Shown: positions 1-16,586, counted from the first letter of the stretch. The stretch is 16,586 nucleotides of DNA from Deltaproteobacteria bacterium (GCA_040218735.1 JAVJQW010000054.1:1-16586), one strand, 5' to 3'. The notes: generated by a model from the sequence alone, not told the origin. A program made the numbers and translations.

Positions 1-83
1 CGGGCACCCGCCGCGCCGCGCGCACCACGGCGACGCGCCGGCACGCCTGGTCCTCGGTCAGCCCGAGCCCCTCGACGCAGAAC
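1..83 (+). repeat. Terminal direct repeat of the window, matching 16504-16586
   Basis: 82/83 identical. The only difference is C26 vs T16529 (GTG/GTA, both Val, on the minus strand). Confidence 0.98.
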
Positions 84-253
84 CGAAACAGCGAGCTGAA
101 GCCGCGCTCGACGTAGAGCTTGCGCCGCTCGATCTCCGCCATGAACCGGAGCGCCTCGATACCGCTCTTCAGCTCCGCGCGAAGCGCTTCGCGAAGTCCG
201 CTCAGGAGATCGTTCTGGGTCATGCAAGACAGGTTGCAAGCGTTCGGGCTCAT
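1..253 (-). CDS. HNH-domain repeat-family (DUF222-like) protein, N-terminal part; runs off the window start
   Basis: Manual translation from ATG 253 (alternative ATG 223): MSPNACNLSCMTQNDLLSGLREALRAELKSGIEALRFMAEIERRKLYVERGFSSLFRFCVEGLGLTEDQACRRVAVVRAARRVP. It overlaps, in frame, the start of the 15764-16586 HNH ORF. Not listed in the ORF track because the stop lies outside the window. Confidence 0.85.
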   Translation of the reverse strand, partial: MSPNACNLSCMTQNDLLSGLREALRAELKSGIEALRFMAEIERRKLYVERGFSSLFRFCVEGLGLTEDQACRRVAVVRAARRVP

Positions 254-829
254 GCATCGAAGGTATCATCGAGCCCCCGAAACGCGATTCGGCGCGGCTC
301 GAGGATGGCGGTCCGAGACGTGCGAGGACGCACGCCATGGACCGTCAGCGTCCGGCGATGAGTCCAAGCTCGAAAACTTCGAAACGGACTGCGTTCGTCG
401 AGGCGATGGCCCGGACAGGGCCTTTGATTTCGTCAACCCCTATGAGAGAAAAAGAACACTCCTCTGCAACTCAACTTGCGCGACCGGCGATCCCCCGCTA
501 ACCCGCCGGCGAACCTCACCGGTCCATCGCAGCCCTCGACCGCCGCCGGCGCAATCATCCGACGCGCAATCCATGGGTCTCGTGAAACGCGTCGAAGGCG
601 GGCGTTGGTCACTCGCGTGCGAGGCCTTGAAGATCCATCAGGGGGATGGCCGCGCCGCGAGCGCTACATCGGGATCGATGCGAGCGCCGCCGACCAGCGA
701 GCGGAGCCGACCGCGGTCCCCCTGCCAACATGGAGCGCGGACTGCGCGGGCCGGCGGGGCACTGCCGTGTCGGGCGATGGTTCCAAGGTGCGTCGGGCGC
801 GTCATTCCCCGCCTACGGCGTTTCCAGGT

Positions 830-857
830 GGCCAGATCCGCAAAGTCAACGGCACTG
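830..857 (-). repeat. Terminal inverted repeat, IS4-like
   Basis: Minus strand reads CAGTGCCGTTGACTTTGCGGATCTGGCC versus CAATGCCGTTAACTAAGCGGATCTGGCC at 15563-15590 (+): 24/28 identical, inner 12 bp exact. Confidence 0.8.
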
Positions 858-860
858 CGG

Positions 861-1844
861 CTAATCCTCGGTGACGCGCAGGGCGGTGCGGTTCAGCACG
901 ACCAGGATGTTCCGCCCCGTCACGTGGATCGCGTCGAAGCCCTTCAGCATCGCGAACCGGCCCGGGTCGGTAAAGAACATCAGCTCCTCAGCGACGCGCT
1001 CCCGCTCGTACGCCGCGGCGCGCTCCGGCTGGCCCTTCAGGCCGAGCAACTTCACTTGCTTCGCCGTCTGGTCGCGGTGCTCCGCGCCGAGTCGATCCAT
1101 CTCCGCGTTGAGCTCCACGTCGTTTGCGACCTTCGCGCCGCGCTTGAGCGTCATCTCGGCGACCGAGCCGGTCGAGCCCGCATGGTGCGCCGCGAGGTCC
1201 GCGCGCGATGCGAGCGCGACGTAGATCCCGTTCCCGCACGAGCCGCTCCCCGCGAAGTACGCGCCGGACCGCAGCTGATCCACGAACGAAGTGTCCGTCA
1301 CCCCGCGCATCAGCTTCTGCTCGCCGAGCGCCGCGAAGCTCTCGAGCGCCTCCGCGCTCACCACGTGCGGCGCACCCGCGAAGCCGATCTCCCGCGCGAG
1401 GTCCGAGAGGAACCGATCCTCACCCTCCGACGGCGGAGCGAAGATCCGATCCGGGTCGCCCTCCTTCGAGAGCCACCCCTGCACCGTCCGCGACCGCGAG
1501 AACACGGTGAGCGGCGACTTCGTGATCTCGTGGTTCTCCAAGAGCTCCGGCCGCTGGCGAGGCGTCGTCTTCGGGAACTCCACCGCCGGCGCCTGCACTT
1601 CGGCGGTCAGCGCCCGGAGCACGTCGGACGACGTCACCGTCGGGACGAAGCCGTCCGCCTCGAAGAACGCGCGTAGCCGCGCGCCGGCGACCTGCGCCGT
1701 CGCGCTCCCGTGCGCGAGCGCGTCCAACAGACCGTCGAGCTGAACGGACCCCGAAGCGTCGCCGAGGTTCGCCATGAACGACTCGACCGCCTGGCGCTGG
1801 GCATAGATCGGAGGGGTGCTCACCGCCCCGGATGGTGCGGCCAT
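861..1844 (-). CDS. Hypothetical protein with a putative C-terminal ADP-ribosyltransferase (PARP/ART-like) fold
   Basis: 327-aa ORF 27 bp after the kinase stop. Ordered motifs LMRGV, YFAGSGSCGNGIYVA, GFDAIHV and LVVLNRTAL resemble the ART/PARP-like core strands. The CDS is solid; the fold call is inference. Confidence 0.6.
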   Translation of the reverse strand: MAAPSGAVSTPPIYAQRQAVESFMANLGDASGSVQLDGLLDALAHGSATAQVAGARLRAFFEADGFVPTVTSSDVLRALTAEVQAPAVEFPKTTPRQRPELLENHEITKSPLTVFSRSRTVQGWLSKEGDPDRIFAPPSEGEDRFLSDLAREIGFAGAPHVVSAEALESFAALGEQKLMRGVTDTSFVDQLRSGAYFAGSGSCGNGIYVALASRADLAAHHAGSTGSVAEMTLKRGAKVANDVELNAEMDRLGAEHRDQTAKQVKLLGLKGQPERAAAYERERVAEELMFFTDPGRFAMLKGFDAIHVTGRNILVVLNRTALRVTED

Positions 1845-6505: not shown

Positions 6506-7312
6506 TCAGCGTCCGGTGACGTTGCGGACTTCTTGGAGGAGCTCTTCGCCCGTCAACTGCGTGTCGCGCGACGGGGTGCCGTGGGGGGCCTCGAACACGA
6601 CGTGCATGTCCGAGCGGCGCACGATCAGATCGATGCCGCGCGCCTCCGAGAACGGGCTGGTGTCGAACACCCGCGTACGCGGGGTCGATTCGCCGTCGCC
6701 GACGCAGAGCCCCTTGTCGCTCCCGTACCCGTTGAACGCCTGACGGCACTGCACGGCAGTCCCATCCTGGTTCGTCGTCGTGTGCTCGAGCACCCAGATG
6801 ATCTGAGCCCCCGCTGCGAGTATGTCTTCTTCAACCGCGGCCACCGACCTGGCGTGCCTCACACAGTCTGGTCACCACGCGTCCAGGGAGACGAACAGCA
6901 ACGCGTCCACGTCCCCCCAGGTGCCGTCCGAGTTGCAGAAGACGTCGTGCAGGTCGAGGACCGTCGAGACGTCGTTCCCGTCGATCGCCTGCGGCCAGGC
7001 GTACGGGAAGAGCGGCTGGTTGAGGGCCATCGGCTCGGCCGGGTTGGCCGGGTACTCGCAGTTCGCGACGCCCGCGTCCCGGAAGCCGCCGTCGCGCGGT
7101 GCGCCGCCACCGTCGCGCGGTGCGCCGCCGCCGTCGCGCGGTGCGCCGCCGCCGTCGCGGATGACGCCGTTGCCGGCGTCGCGGATGACGTTCTCACCGG
7201 CGTCGCGCGGCCCGGTGATGTCGTCGTCGGTGCGATCGGTGCCGCCGGAGCATGCGATCAGGCTCAGCGTCAGCGGTGCGAGACACGCACGGGAGAAGGC
7301 GACTGGCCTCAC
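6506..7312 (-). CDS. Selenocysteine-containing thioredoxin-fold (TlpA/AhpC-TSA-like) lipoprotein, ~268 aa, in-frame UGA at 6872-6874
   Basis: ORFs 6872-7432 and 6506-6862 are in the same frame, joined by TGG TGA CCA GAC TGT. Read through, this gives LLFVSLDAW-U-PDC-VRHARSVAAVEEDILAAGAQIIWVL (strand, UxxC, helix, strand). GTG 7312 starts a signal peptide with lipobox LIA-C (Cys21). Confidence 0.85.
6833..6868 (-). promoter_or_regulatory. Bacterial SECIS-like hairpin
   Basis: mRNA after the UGA folds as GACUGU-GUGA-GGC-A-CGCC-[AGGUC]-GGUG-GCC-GCGGUU. The apical loop begins 21 nt after the UGA and contains GGU, as in the E. coli fdhF SECIS loop. Confidence 0.75.
7074..7210 (-). repeat. Coding tandem repeats (21-bp x3 plus 24-bp variants) encoding an RDGG/RDAG linker
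   Basis: Unit ccgccgtcgcgcggtgcgccg at 7086, 7107 (one mismatch) and 7128. Protein: PRDAGENVIRDAGNGVIRDGGGAPRDGGGAPRDGGGAPRDGGFRDAG. Confidence 0.9.
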
Positions 7313-12686: not shown

Positions 12687-15401
12687 ATGCTCTGTCGTGA
12701 GTGCGGAACCCCGAATCGTTCGGGCGCACGCCGATGCGTGCGATGTATGGCCGTCCTCATCGACGAGGTCGACACACGCCACGATCCGAACCGGTACCGG
12801 CGCCCCGCGCCGCAGGCGCCGTCGACGCAGATGCCCGACGAGGCGCCTTCACTTGTGGAAGAGGACGACACGATCCTCGGGATGCCGATCCCCGACACCG
12901 TCGCGGACACGTCGGCGCGCGGGATCGACGAGATCGACTTCGACAACGAGGGGCACACCGCGCACAGCCTCGACGCCGACACGGACGAGGACATGTACGC
13001 GGACGAGACGATCGTCGCGGAGGTGCAGTCGAAGCGTCCGGCGCCCGCCGGGCGCACGGCACGCGCGGAGCCGTGGGAGGACGTCGCCGAGGCGGCGCGC
13101 GGACCGGCGGGTCGTCGGTTCGTGGACGACCAGCCGACGAACGTCCCGCTGACGCGGCCCAAGCCGAAGTCGCGGGCGCAGACCGACGCGGCGCTGAGCG
13201 AGTTGAAGTCGTGGGCGGAGAATCGCCAGCGGTCGCGCTCGACGAACACCGGGCGGGCCGCGGCGCCGCGCGACAAGACGGCGGGGATGGCGTTGCCGTC
13301 GTTCCCGACGCCGAAGCCGTCCGGCCGTCTGCGTCCGAAGCCGTCGAAGTCGGAGCCGGTGATGGAGCTCGAGGTCGAGGACCGGCCGACGGTGCCGATC
13401 CTCGACGAGGAGACGGGGGACTTCGTCGTGGAAGCGTCGACGGGGGACCTCGGCGAGATCTCGACGCTCGGCGTCGGACACGCGGGCGGCGACGCACGGC
13501 ACCGCGCGCCCACGCGCGTCCCGGTCGACGACGCGACGCCCGTCGCGGGCTCGCAGGTCCCGGCGCGTCGGCCCTCCCCCCGCCGCGCGAAGCCGGAGAC
13601 TGGCCAGCGCCCGATCTCGCCGCCCAGCGCGTCGATGCGGCCGGCGGCAGACGAGGCGGTGCGTTCGGTGGACCACGCACGGCGCGCCGAGGCGGGGCGG
13701 GCGGAGGCCAGCCAGCGCCCGATCTCGCCGCCGAGCGCGTCGATGCGGCAGGCCGCGGAACGCGGACCACGTTCGGTCGACCCCGGCGACGCCAAGCGCG
13801 CCGAGGCGGGCCGCGCGAACGAACGCGCGGAGGCGGGCCGCGCGAACGAGCGCGCGGAGGCGGGTCGCACGAACCAGCGCTCGGAGGCGGGTCGCGGTGA
13901 GCTTCGTCGCGGCGCCGAGCACGGCGATCCCCAGCGCGCGGATCCTCATCGCGGCGCGGATCGCGCCGAGGCTCCTCGCGGCGCGAAGTCGCGGGGCGCC
14001 GCCGCGCGTGACGCCGATCAGGTCGCGCCCACGCGCCCGACGCCGGTGGGGAGCGCGGCGGCCGCGGCGGATCCTTCGGTGCGCGCCTACAAGAAGTCGC
14101 AGCCCGACCCCGTCTCGGACCTCGTCCTCACCACGCCCGGCGGCGGGACGCCGGCGCTGCGGCCGCAGAAGATCGTCCCGAACCCGCCGCCGCCGCGTGC
14201 GCCGCGCGGGGTCACGCGTTCGATCGCGAGCGACGCTCTGTCGCCGGTGGTGCCGACCGACCTCGACGACGCCGAGCCGTCCGGTGAGTCCACGCGGCTC
14301 GGCAACCTCGCGGACCCGTCGGCGGATCTGTTGATGGCGATGCCGGTGCATCACGATCGTCCGGCCGACGACGAGGGGCCCTCCGAGACGATCGCGGCGC
14401 CCGGTCAGCTCGCGGGCGCTGCGCCGCGGAGCTTGTCCGGGCTGGTGAAGGATCTCGACGCCGGCCCGTCGGAGCCGATGTCACCGCCCCCGATCCTCTC
14501 CACCGCGAGCGAGGTGCGCCGCGGCCTCGCCGAACACCTCGGCGGAGAGAAAGACTCGCGAACGGCGGATCAGCGACGGCTCCGCAACGCGCGGAGCGAG
14601 ACGACGGACCCGGAGATGTCGGACGTCGCCGGCCCGGATACGGGCGGACGCGAGGACACCAAGCGCCTCGGCAAGGAGGTCGTGCAGGCGGTGTTTGCGC
14701 AGGAGGAGACCGCCGGCCTCCTCGACGCGTTGGAGCCGGGGCCCGACACCGCGCCGGTGCTCGACGATCCGTCCGCGGACGTCTTCCGCCCCACGCCGCT
14801 GCAGCTCGATCCCTCGGCGCCCACGGGTGCGTCGCCGAGCCCGACGGGGTTCGACGCGGGCGCGCCGACGGGTGACCAGCTGATGCCGTTGGGCGTCGAC
14901 GTCTCGTTCGACGCGATCCCCGCGACGACCGACGCGTCCGATTCGCGCCGTCGTCTCGCGGTCGGGGTTCGTCGCTTCGGTGCCGTCCTGATCGACGCGA
15001 CGATCCTCGTCGCGCTGATCGCCGTGCCTGCGCTGTTCGGCGTCTTCTCGGAGGCGATCCCCAACGCGTCGTTGGTCGAGCCCGACGACGTCGCGGCGCT
15101 CCTCGTCGACGGCCACCTCACGTTGCCGTTGGTGTTCGGCGTCGTGCTGTACCTCGTCTACTCGGTCCTCGCGCACACGTTCGGCGGCCGCACCCTCGGC
15201 AAGCTCGCGCTGGGGCTCGAGCTCGTGAACACCAAGACAGGCGACCGCGTCACGCCGCTGCGCGCGATTCTCCGCGCGGTGTTCGGTTTGGTCGGGCTCC
15301 TCGCCGGGGGGATCGGATACTTCTGGCTGCTCTTGGATCGGCGCGGGCGAACGCTGCACGATCACCTCGCCCGCACCACCGTCGTCCTCGCCGAGCGGTG
15401 A
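12687..15401 (+). CDS. Zinc-ribbon + long low-complexity linker + RDD-family membrane domain protein (~904 aa)
   Basis: N-terminal CRECG..RRCVRC. C-terminal RRFGAVLID, GRTLGKLALGL and RTLHDHLARTTVV with hydrophobic helices. Start ATG 12687 or 12669; the ORF-track start at 12519 overlaps the RluA-family gene. Confidence 0.88.
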   Translation: MLCRECGTPNRSGARRCVRCMAVLIDEVDTRHDPNRYRRPAPQAPSTQMPDEAPSLVEEDDTILGMPIPDTVADTSARGIDEIDFDNEGHTAHSLDADTDEDMYADETIVAEVQSKRPAPAGRTARAEPWEDVAEAARGPAGRRFVDDQPTNVPLTRPKPKSRAQTDAALSELKSWAENRQRSRSTNTGRAAAPRDKTAGMALPSFPTPKPSGRLRPKPSKSEPVMELEVEDRPTVPILDEETGDFVVEASTGDLGEISTLGVGHAGGDARHRAPTRVPVDDATPVAGSQVPARRPSPRRAKPETGQRPISPPSASMRPAADEAVRSVDHARRAEAGRAEASQRPISPPSASMRQAAERGPRSVDPGDAKRAEAGRANERAEAGRANERAEAGRTNQRSEAGRGELRRGAEHGDPQRADPHRGADRAEAPRGAKSRGAAARDADQVAPTRPTPVGSAAAAADPSVRAYKKSQPDPVSDLVLTTPGGGTPALRPQKIVPNPPPPRAPRGVTRSIASDALSPVVPTDLDDAEPSGESTRLGNLADPSADLLMAMPVHHDRPADDEGPSETIAAPGQLAGAAPRSLSGLVKDLDAGPSEPMSPPPILSTASEVRRGLAEHLGGEKDSRTADQRRLRNARSETTDPEMSDVAGPDTGGREDTKRLGKEVVQAVFAQEETAGLLDALEPGPDTAPVLDDPSADVFRPTPLQLDPSAPTGASPSPTGFDAGAPTGDQLMPLGVDVSFDAIPATTDASDSRRRLAVGVRRFGAVLIDATILVALIAVPALFGVFSEAIPNASLVEPDDVAALLVDGHLTLPLVFGVVLYLVYSVLAHTFGGRTLGKLALGLELVNTKTGDRVTPLRAILRAVFGLVGLLAGGIGYFWLLLDRRGRTLHDHLARTTVVLAER
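13603..13901 (+). repeat. Coding repeats in the RDD protein linker
   Basis: QRPISPPSASMR twice (13603 and 13711, 108 bp apart). 27-bp RAEAGRANE-type unit at 13797, 13824, 13851 and 13878. Confidence 0.9.
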
Positions 15402-15404
15402 CGC

Positions 15405-15556
15405 TAGGCTGAGGCCCGGCGCGGCGGGTCGGAAGACTGTGCCCAGGTCACTCGCGAAGCGAGGGACCGTTACGGCCTTAGGCTGAGGCCCGGCGCGGAG
15501 CGGCGGGTCGGAAGACTGTGCCCAGGTCACTCGCGAAGCGAGGGACCGTTATGGCG
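15405..15556. repeat. Two tandem ~74-78 bp REP-like hairpin repeats
   Basis: 15405-15478 and 15479-15556 are near identical (5-bp insertion in copy 2, small differences at the tail). Each contains ggtc-a-ctcgc-GAA-gcgag-g-gacc (15446-15468 and 15525-15547). Confidence 0.92.
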
Positions 15557-15562
15557 TAGAAG

Positions 15563-15590
15563 CAATGCCGTTAACTAAGCGGATCTGGCC
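15563..15590 (+). repeat. Terminal inverted repeat, IS4-like
   Basis: CAATGCCGTTAACTAAGCGGATCTGGCC; inverted partner at 830-857. Confidence 0.8.
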
Positions 15591-15763
15591 TGGCTCGAGC
15601 TCCCATCAGGCGGCGCGGGGCGCCTCGACGTAGGGCAGCGCGCCGGCGCCGAGGAGCGACTCGTCCCTCGGCCGCCGTTTCGCGGGGCTGGTGAAGGAGG
15701 GGGTCCGCGGGCCGCAGTGCTCCGAAGGAGGGCCGCACTCTCGAAAACTGGCTGGTATCGCTC

Positions 15764-16586
15764 TCACGAACTGCCCTCCGCGCGTGCCGGTGGCGTCGGA
15801 TGCGGTTCACGCCGAGGACGCTCGGAACACGCGCCTTGCCTGGGCAGGGTAGAGCGGCGCTCGTGGATCCTCCGATCGACGAGGGCGTGACCCAACACCT
15901 CCCGCGCCGCGTGAAGGTTGTGCGCGCGACACAGTAATCGCAGCTCGCCGACCACGCTCTTGGCGCCCAACGCACGTCCGCCGACATGATCGAATTCGAG
16001 GTTCGACCGTTCGCTGCATCGCCGTCCGTCCGGGCTCACGTACGTGCACTGCGCGCCGTCGCGCTCGACCACTGCACGCCGCGTTGCCGCCGGGACGTAC
16101 GCTGCGCCCGCCGGCGCATCCTCGGCGGGTTTCGATCGCGGACGACTCGTCTTTCCGTTCTTCCGCTTCTCGAGCTTCTCCACGTAGAGCGCGAGCGCCG
16201 CTTCGAAGATCTCCCCGATGTCCGTCCCAGGCGGGGTGAGCTCCTTGGCTCGATCCAAGAGCGCCTTCGCTTCGGCGCTCCCGTCGAAGCGAAAAGCGAA
16301 CGTCTCCGCGGTCGCCGCCTCGACGCGATCGTCACTGCTCTTCGCGCCTGGGAATTCGGTAGCGATCAGCATCTCGACCTCGGCCTTGGACTTGTTCCGC
16401 GCCTGCTCGACGAGGCTGTGGGCGTTGTCGTCGTTCATGAACTTGGAGAGCTTCGCGACGCCCGTCATGTGCAGCTCGCCGGTCGCGATCATCTGGAAGA
16501 CCTCGGGCACCCGCCGCGCCGCGCGCACTACGGCGACGCGCCGGCACGCCTGGTCCTCGGTCAGCCCGAGCCCCTCGACGCAGAAC
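15764..16586 (-). CDS. HNH endonuclease-domain repeat-family (DUF222-like) protein, 5'-truncated by the window end
   Basis: RRAVVERDGAQCTYVSPDGRRC..LEFDHV..LRLLCRAHN. The frame stays open to the window end (FCVEGLGLTEDQACRRVAVV), so GTG 16528 is not the true start. Confidence 0.9.
   Translation of the reverse strand, partial: FCVEGLGLTEDQACRRVAVVRAARRVPEVFQMIATGELHMTGVAKLSKFMNDDNAHSLVEQARNKSKAEVEMLIATEFPGAKSSDDRVEAATAETFAFRFDGSAEAKALLDRAKELTPPGTDIGEIFEAALALYVEKLEKRKNGKTSRPRSKPAEDAPAGAAYVPAATRRAVVERDGAQCTYVSPDGRRCSERSNLEFDHVGGRALGAKSVVGELRLLCRAHNLHAAREVLGHALVDRRIHERRSTLPRQGACSERPRREPHPTPPARAEGSS

Follow-up and report, generated by a model that had tools for sequence, protein, structure and literature searches.

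The window, by which we mean the whole stretch of DNA analysed here (16,586 nt), is the entire contig C32 of G000, an 11.6-Mb genome assembly in 70 contigs with a completeness of 96.5% and a contamination of 4.7%. Its two ends hold parts of two separate copies of a repeated element that carries an HNH gene, copy A on the left and copy B on the right. The termini of these copies read CAATGCCG... at 15563 and ...CGGCACTG at 857, and positions 830-863 pair with 15557-15590 as a 34-nt inverted repeat (82% complementary). The inverted ends facing the flanking genes, noticed in the preliminary description, are thus real. The features of both copies are as follows.

1..857, plus strand: copy A, right-hand 857 bp in element orientation (BLAST to the full copy on contig C33 covers reference positions 943-1792)
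1..253, minus strand: copy A, first 84 codons of the HNH gene (ATG at 253-251; the frame runs off the contig start)
254..836, minus strand: copy A, leader of about 580 bp upstream of the HNH gene, non-coding, varying at about the neutral rate
837..857, minus strand: copy A, right terminal inverted repeat, inward CAGTGCCGTTGACTTTGCGGA (inverted-repeat and motif scan)
858..867, no strand: copy A, 10-bp target-site duplication CGGCTAATCC (the same 10-mer precedes the left terminus at C45:145812)
15553..15562, no strand: copy B, target decamer GGCGTAGAAG beside the left terminus (TAG at the fixed offset of the family)
15563..15583, plus strand: copy B, left terminal inverted repeat CAATGCCGTTAACTAAGCGGA (inverted-repeat and motif scan)
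15563..16586, plus strand: copy B, left-hand 1,024 bp (last 141 bp identical to C67:1-141)
15764..16586, minus strand: copy B, codons 58-330 and stop of the HNH gene (stop at 15764-15766)

The coding part of copy A (C32:2-253) shares 93% identity with residues 1-84 of the HNH protein, and bases 861-863 (CTA) within its duplication are the stop codon of a host ORF on the minus strand (861-1844). The gene of copy B forms an unbroken 330-aa frame together with C67, where the right end of this copy is degenerate and has no matching duplication; no partner for the decamer GGCGTAGAAG was present among the left-by-right terminus pairs.

The start and the end of the window overlap by 83 bp with one mismatch (99% identity), and the preliminary description had joined them into a unit of 1,798 bp. 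The first 141 bases of C32 are identical to the final 141 bases of C64, and its final 141 bases are identical to C67:1-141, which is the sole graph link in both directions. Since these ends match C64 and C67 exactly, and the contig ends of G000 have 60 exact 141-base links of this kind, the ends of C32 represent a break of the assembly graph within repeats and not a circle. The true left end of copy A is C45:145812, as indicated by the 10/10 duplication CGGCTAATCC and by the gene order in a congener. With the contig broken in a repeat, the joined unit is a chimera of two copies which does not exist physically and is still a fair picture of the family.

We used the internal copy at C33:76228-78022 as the reference unit, and its length of 1,795 bp agrees with the expected size of about 1.8 kb. 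BLAST with this unit revealed 62 chained fragments in the 11.6-Mb genome, 85-93% alike; either window end used as a query gives dozens of matches in the same identity range, many of which lie at contig ends. The homology of other copies to the reference starts at position 1-2 and stops at ~1797, that is, it ends at the inverted ends. A motif scan of G000 for the terminus of ~21 bp found at both element ends (5'-CAATGCCGTTSACTTAGCGGA) identified 46 termini (23 left and 23 right, two of them doubtful), and both this number and that of the fragments are far above chance. All 44 credible termini continue into the left-type or the right-type interior of the HNH element, so the ends do not come from a separate MITE. 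Between the ends, the unit contains a leader of ~600 bp, the 330-aa gene and a trailer of ~200 bp. Relative to the left-to-right orientation, the gene lies on the opposite strand, and it is the only conserved one in the unit. Six copies contained on single contigs are uninterrupted over residues 1-330, and four of the 49 protein matches in G000 include a stop.

A deletion derivative without the gene, with reference position 332 joined to 1153, is present at two loci with different flanks (contigs C5 and C57), which points to movement without the gene in cis. Joins along the assembly graph were set aside as a source of full copies because the duplications of such linked end pairs are identical at merely 3-5 of 10 positions; either these links are wrong or the copies have recombined. 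In one further copy (C17:431562-431985 with C8:1704-2571), ~2.3 kb of other DNA seems to interrupt the cassette (reference ~421 and ~417-526).

A sequence logo of the 14 nt flanking the 46 ends shows YTAG at -7 to -4 followed by three mostly G/C bases, and the base preceding AATGCCG is nearly always C. This flank suggests a palindromic 10-bp target, GGS-YTAG-SCC. Target-site duplications of 10 bp were found for the copy on C29 (CTATTAGCCC left and right, 10/10 by eye), the C33 copy (GCGTTAGCGG and GCGCTAGCGG, 9/10), the left end on C45 paired with C32:857 (CGGCTAATCC, 10/10) and the ends on C53 and C58 (10/10). On average, the 529 left-by-right pairs are identical at 4.25/10 positions, and no more than four pairs reach at least 9/10. 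At 13 of the 46 ends, the target TAG or TAA is the in-frame stop codon of a long host frame with high GC3 running toward the element; with the TAG shifted by 1-2 bases, the same pattern occurs at three further ends. At two sites (L001:496-498 with 2300-2302, and 861-863 of the window), the stop codons of convergent host genes had overlapped (CTAG or CTAA) and were separated by the 10-bp duplication, so that both genes remained unbroken with a stop codon each.

A repeat of ~64 nt, present in the window at 15413-15476 and 15492-15555 and with 17 BLAST matches in the genome, can fold into hairpins (-28.8 kcal/mol). It ends with ...TTATGGC(C/G)TAG, which offers a target for the cassette, and its copies adjoin several cassette ends (on C4, C14, C46 and C5, and at the left terminus in the window).

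A congeneric genome, G001 (75% complete), revealed empty sites. The orthologues of the genes flanking the C33 copy are convergent in G001 and ~10 bp apart. The last gene of C45 and the window ORF 861-1844 have orthologues in G001 with 90% (amino acid) and 79% identity, respectively, and these two genes abut there (stops TGA|TCA), whereas in G000 they are kept apart by the cassette flanked by CGGCTAATCC. This synteny and the duplication therefore anchor copy A on C45. Both tested loci (C33 and C45/C32) are empty in G001, and the cassette rose to tens of copies after the lineage had split from this congener.

For other populations, we compared contigs from four public runs of four studies with the C33 copy. 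Flank contigs in two runs (X1 and X2) continue into the ends of the C33 element, and those of X2 differ at 9 and 13 of ~530 bases and thus derive from another strain. No empty C33 allele was found in these four runs, in which the joints skipping the element had sides of 22-24 letters (below 30) and lay away from the element ends. The cassette is fixed at C33, the single locus examined in other strains. We infer that the burst is old, because the copies differ by at least 7%, their ends decay neutrally, and the C33 insertion is shared by a second strain that comes from another study.

The ends of the cassette identify its relatives. IS4 of E. coli K-12 has the ends TAATGCCGATCAGTTAAGGA and TAATGCCAGTCAGTTAAGCA with a 12-bp duplication, so the IS4 terminus given in the preliminary description was correct. 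By eye, the cassette terminus is like that of E. coli IS4 at 14 of 20 positions. According to Table 1 of PMC2266710, members of the IS4 subgroup are 1400-1650 bp long, have ends of the type -AATR--------WTW---- and produce direct repeats of 10-13 bp. The cassette consensus CAATGCCGTTCACTTAGCGG, with AATG at positions 2-5 and TTA at 14-16, fits this tabulated end consensus, and its 10-bp duplication falls within the tabulated range.

We then searched 401 genomes of the phylum with the terminus pattern, allowing at most two mismatches and using the reversed pattern as a control. Matches were found in 14 genomes including G000; the control gave single matches only, in five genomes. IS4-like elements of 1.43-1.45 kb, complete or partial, are present in five of the genomes (G135, G166, G347, G043 and G112) and contain ORFs of 450-457 aa with the Nterm_IS4 and DDE_Tnp_1 domains, a score of 250 bits against NF033592 (cut-off 115) and 37% identity to E. 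coli InsG over 424 residues. Thus, IS4 transposase genes with matching ends do occur elsewhere in the phylum, for example in G135, G166 and G347. The termini of these elements differ from the 21-bp cassette terminus at 0-2 of the first 20 bases, and their flanks (...CTAGgcg|CAATGCCG) represent the target of the cassette at the same offset. No nucleotide likeness between the cassette and these cognate elements was detected beyond the terminal ~20 bp. A transposase relic within the cassette was considered and rejected, as tblastn of four cognate transposases on the unit gave a best E value of 0.56.

Gene-less elements with cassette-type ends were also revealed, including G248 MITEs of 190 and 812 bp and a G342 MITE of 235 bp with YTAG-centred duplications (8-9/10), as well as a MITE of 437 bp in a Myxococcales MAG (L065) with a duplication of 5/10. 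The genome of G248 (4.0 Mb) has 50 matches to the IS4-type terminus, which include the 812-bp MITE at L055:1500-2311 and the 190-bp MITE at L061:1332-1521; the G248 loci inspected showed no transposase. A scan of a collection of genome contigs with the exact 21-mer gave four matches, by our estimate about the number expected by chance, with L065 as the only real element.

The absence of a DDE ORF from the unit, stated in the preliminary description, was borne out. In the whole of G000, PF01609 detects only one IS701-family and one IS1182-family gene, both with other ends, and no IS4 transposase was found there with InsG, NF033592 or the four cognate transposases (best tblastn E value 0.36). 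The motif scan also found no G000 contig end where the terminus is followed by a foreign interior. Since neither the unit nor the assembly contains an ORF with DDE or IS4 N-terminal domains, the cassette is a derivative of an IS and not an IS itself. The smallest contig kept in the bin is 2.3 kb, so a collapsed IS of 1.45 kb could have dropped out of it. As the 96.5%-complete assembly has no partner transposase, mobilisation in trans by a cognate IS4 transposase is proposed by analogy with related elements.

The sole gene was expected to encode an HNH protein of about 330 aa, and this is supported by a PHROG HNH match (E = 8e-5) and by an HNH-like predicted fold. Pfam gave no match for the protein of the element at E<=0.1, neither HNH nor DUF222, and in NCBIfam it has a weak match to the IscB HNH model over the HNH part only (NF040563, E = 0.0024, 17 bits against a cut-off of 175). 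A full-library search returned 15,540 representative clusters at E<=0.001. Among 36 aligned relatives, Pfam recognizes HNH in 27, DUF222 in eight (best E 4e-5) and RuvA_C in six. Residues D233, C237, C247 and H257 are invariant in these relatives, with C276, H279 and N280 nearly so, and the Asn preceding RLRC in the family consensus is replaced by Glu in the protein of the element.

The AF2 model of this protein has a pLDDT of 90.5. Its residues ~215-290 align to HNH folds with middling scores (Z 6.1-6.8), the best alignment being that to the GVE2 HNH (Z 6.8, rmsd 3.1, 75 residues aligned) followed by the IscB HNH domain and EcoKMcrA (Z 6.6), and residues 27-136 align, also with middling scores (Z 5.6-6.7), to the DNA-binding domains of ParB, KorB and Spo0J. 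Based on this model, the protein is predicted to consist of a helical ParB/KorB-like N-terminal domain and a C-terminal HNH nuclease domain, in which the beta-beta-alpha-metal fold, the catalytic His and the zinc ligands of an HNH endonuclease can be recognized. Foldseek against the PDB returned nothing at E<=0.001, the family profile had no match among PDB sequences, and PADLOC gave no match for the protein.

Two further candidates within the unit were rejected. A second ORF in the 600-bp leader is not supported, as the leader shows no codon periodicity (variability by phase 0.091/0.091/0.105) and its long frames differ between copies. As for a structured RNA, Rfam revealed nothing relevant in either the leader or the trailer, and the Alifold z-scores were no better than those of the ORF control; with column shuffles, the ranges for the leader (-3.1 to +0.9) and the ORF (-2.5 to +2.4) overlap.

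The gene has been conserved among the copies. Variability at its three codon positions is 0.044/0.039/0.112, compared to 0.09-0.10 in the non-coding parts, and singleton variants show a weaker bias of the same kind (0.33 and 0.37 per site at positions 1 and 2, 0.61 at position 3 and 0.62-0.72 in non-coding DNA). Pairwise NG86 estimates (244 pairs) gave dN 0.054, dS 0.313 and dN/dS 0.17-0.18, with a 95th percentile of 0.30; the closest pair of HNH copies has a dS of 0.12. A dN/dS of about 0.18 thus shows purifying selection on the HNH gene in more than 20 copies. As to a relaxed constraint in truncated copies, the last 70 codons have a nonsynonymous to synonymous ratio of 1.70 in seven truncated copies versus 1.11 in 18 others, a small difference in what is the least conserved region, with copies cut by contig ends blurring the two classes. 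In contrast to the protein, the 21-bp inverted ends vary at 0.095-0.106 per site, decayed ends being under-sampled in this figure, and have decayed at the neutral rate. Since the ends decay like neutral DNA while the protein is kept, selection has not been for transposability.

With IS-type ends, a target duplication, a passenger gene and no transposase, the element has the composition of a mobile insertion cassette. We consider it likely, with a probability of roughly 0.8, that the window ends in two copies of a non-autonomous cassette of the IS4 subgroup which is moved in trans and carries the HNH gene as cargo. The boundaries of the copies, their duplications, the cognate elements and the empty sites all support the earlier proposal of a non-autonomous IS4-type element with a nuclease gene, the movement in trans being its conjectural part. 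Such a cassette would have kept only the ~21-bp terminal inverted repeats of the IS and would be moved by a DDE transposase of the same IS4 lineage supplied in trans. It inserted at the palindromic GGS-YTAG-SCC, often on convergent host stop codons, and left the genes intact. The partner transposase gene, with CAATGCCGTT...-type ends, may since have been lost or left unassembled or unbinned. The HNH gene would be cargo in transposition, yet kept functional by selection in many resident copies. Since a passive passenger should decay, this conservation of the cargo is the sole feature left unexplained by a plain passenger reading.

Relatives of the HNH gene in other genomes bear on the role of its product. 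A search of the 401 genomes gave close homologues (E<=1e-35) in G000 and G001 alone, and near the G001 homologue (49% identity) there is no IS4-type end in the ~900 bp upstream, with the downstream side cut by the contig end. Another genome, G003, contains about five copies of a unit with a 386-aa HNH gene (L016, L020, L023, L027 and L030), which are 97-99% identical over ~1.55 kb, have ragged left borders and show no inverted ends; this unit looks like a recent spread by some other route. In G036, an HNH unit of ~1.65 kb has 55 DNA matches with consistent left and right borders (L083-L112; for example, L029:613-2274). Its HNH gene is of a distant subfamily (35-40% identity), and the unit is arranged like the cassette, with leader, ORF and trailer. 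The termini of this unit are TCATCATTCATCACATCT... and ...CTTGTGGCCAATCATGA (in short form TCATCATT... and ...AATCATGA), with an inverted match of 12/19 by eye, and they sit between the halves of GGGGAGAGGG/CCCTCTCCCC palindromes. The preliminary description had offered IS4 ends as an explanation for the spread of the HNH family. As the multi-copy units of G003 and G036 are without such ends, this explanation holds for the expansion in G000 only.

It is possible, though we think it rather improbable, that the HNH protein is needed for the spread or persistence of the cassette, with the ParB-like domain binding the element or its target and the nuclease cutting empty YTAG sites (GGCCTAGGCC-type) or the donor, so that the protein would either cooperate with the transposase or promote a homing-like copying. 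The strong purifying selection on the ORF in more than 20 copies, visible in singleton variants too, is in line with such a role, as are the lack of an IS4 transposase in the G000 search and the discrete multi-copy units, bounded by other ends, that related HNH genes form in G036 and G003. However, DDE IS4 elements and gene-less MITEs have exactly the same ends, target and 10-bp duplication, a gene-less derivative occupies two loci, the leader revealed neither a conserved RNA nor an extra motif, and the neutral decay of the ends beside a conserved ORF argues against selection for transposition competence. With the same low probability, the nuclease may act as a partner of the cassette that preserves or spreads itself. 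It might, for instance, cut YTAG sites that are unoccupied, or alleles free of the cassette, whose repair would copy the cassette in. If true, this would explain both the selection on more than 20 copies long after the ends began to decay and the multi-copy units of distant relatives with quite different ends elsewhere.

Considerably less probable is the proposal that the HNH protein itself is the transposase of an autonomous element and that the likeness of the ends to IS4 is convergent. The protein is indeed the product of the only gene of the unit, which is conserved, and G000 has no IS4-type DDE gene, but the 21-bp terminus, the target and the duplication length are common to real IS4-family elements of the phylum, and the homologues in G001, G003 and G036 are without these ends. 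Moreover, no HNH enzyme is known to catalyse strand transfer. Finally, despite the 83-bp overlap at 99% identity, we practically dismiss that the window is a small circle, that both of its ends are one copy, or that the inverted ends are an adjoining separate MITE, given the mismatch in the overlap, the exact 141-bp matches of C64 and C67, the duplication and synteny that pair the 857 end with C45, the 44 of 44 credible termini adjoining the cassette interior and the lack of any short MITE with these ends in G000.

The preferred reading, a trans-mobilised cassette of the IS4 subgroup, can be compared with known systems. MIC231 elements, reportedly described by Chen and colleagues in 1999 and by De Palmenaer and colleagues in 2004, are mobile insertion cassettes of Bacillus cereus derived from IS231 of the IS4 family. 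Both they and the present cassette have IS4-family ends, passenger gene(s), no transposase, a duplication of about one helical turn and presumed movement in trans. MIC231 belongs to the IS231 subgroup with CAT ends, whereas the cassette belongs to IS4 proper with CAATGCCG ends. The cassette also differs in its phylum, its HNH nuclease cargo, its tens of diverged copies, the purifying selection on the cargo, the decay of its ends and the absence of the cognate transposase from G000. Besides the IS231 subgroup in Bacillus, mobile insertion cassettes would thereby also be represented in the IS4 subgroup, namely in a myxobacterial lineage. With E. coli IS4 (insG), the cassette shares the terminus (TAATGCCGATCAGTTAAGGA versus CAATGCCGTTCACTTAGCGGA), a duplication in the 10-13-bp range and a strong target preference; it is longer (1.8 kb versus 1.4-1.65 kb) and has no transposase gene. 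The MITEs of G248, G342 and L065 have the same ends and YTAG-centred 10-bp duplication and are likewise non-autonomous. They are 190-812 bp long with no HNH or transposase homologue by tblastn, in contrast to the cassette with its conserved 330-aa gene.

Actinobacteria have HNH proteins of the DUF222/HNH '13E12-repeat' type (DUF222 being PF02720). Like the protein of the cassette, they have a helical N-terminal domain and a C-terminal zinc-bound HNH domain and form multi-copy families. The protein of the element differs in having no Pfam match at E<=0.1 and an identified vehicle of mobility, the IS4 ends. With the cassette, a concrete vehicle is at hand for one large expansion within a DUF222-like HNH gene family that has otherwise been unexplained. 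The preliminary description had also suggested an analogy to TnpB/IscB. The cassette and these genes of IS200/IS605 elements have in common a nuclease gene within a transposon and a weak likeness of the HNH domain to that of IscB (fold Z 6.6). This analogy is not supported, since the cassette has no RuvC domain, no Rfam match and no conserved or guide-RNA-like RNA structure, and it has other ends and another transposition chemistry. A literature search for HNH genes within transposase-less elements with inverted ends found nothing relevant.

Owing to its CTAG-centred target, this IS lineage inserts at the stop codons of convergent genes and leaves the genes unbroken. A selfish passenger would not be expected to stay conserved beside decaying ends, and this contrast recommends the protein for biochemical study. 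Elsewhere in the window, short tandem repeats with periods of 21 and 27 are present at 7085-7168 and 13795-13896 within long open frames, and are unrelated to the cassette.
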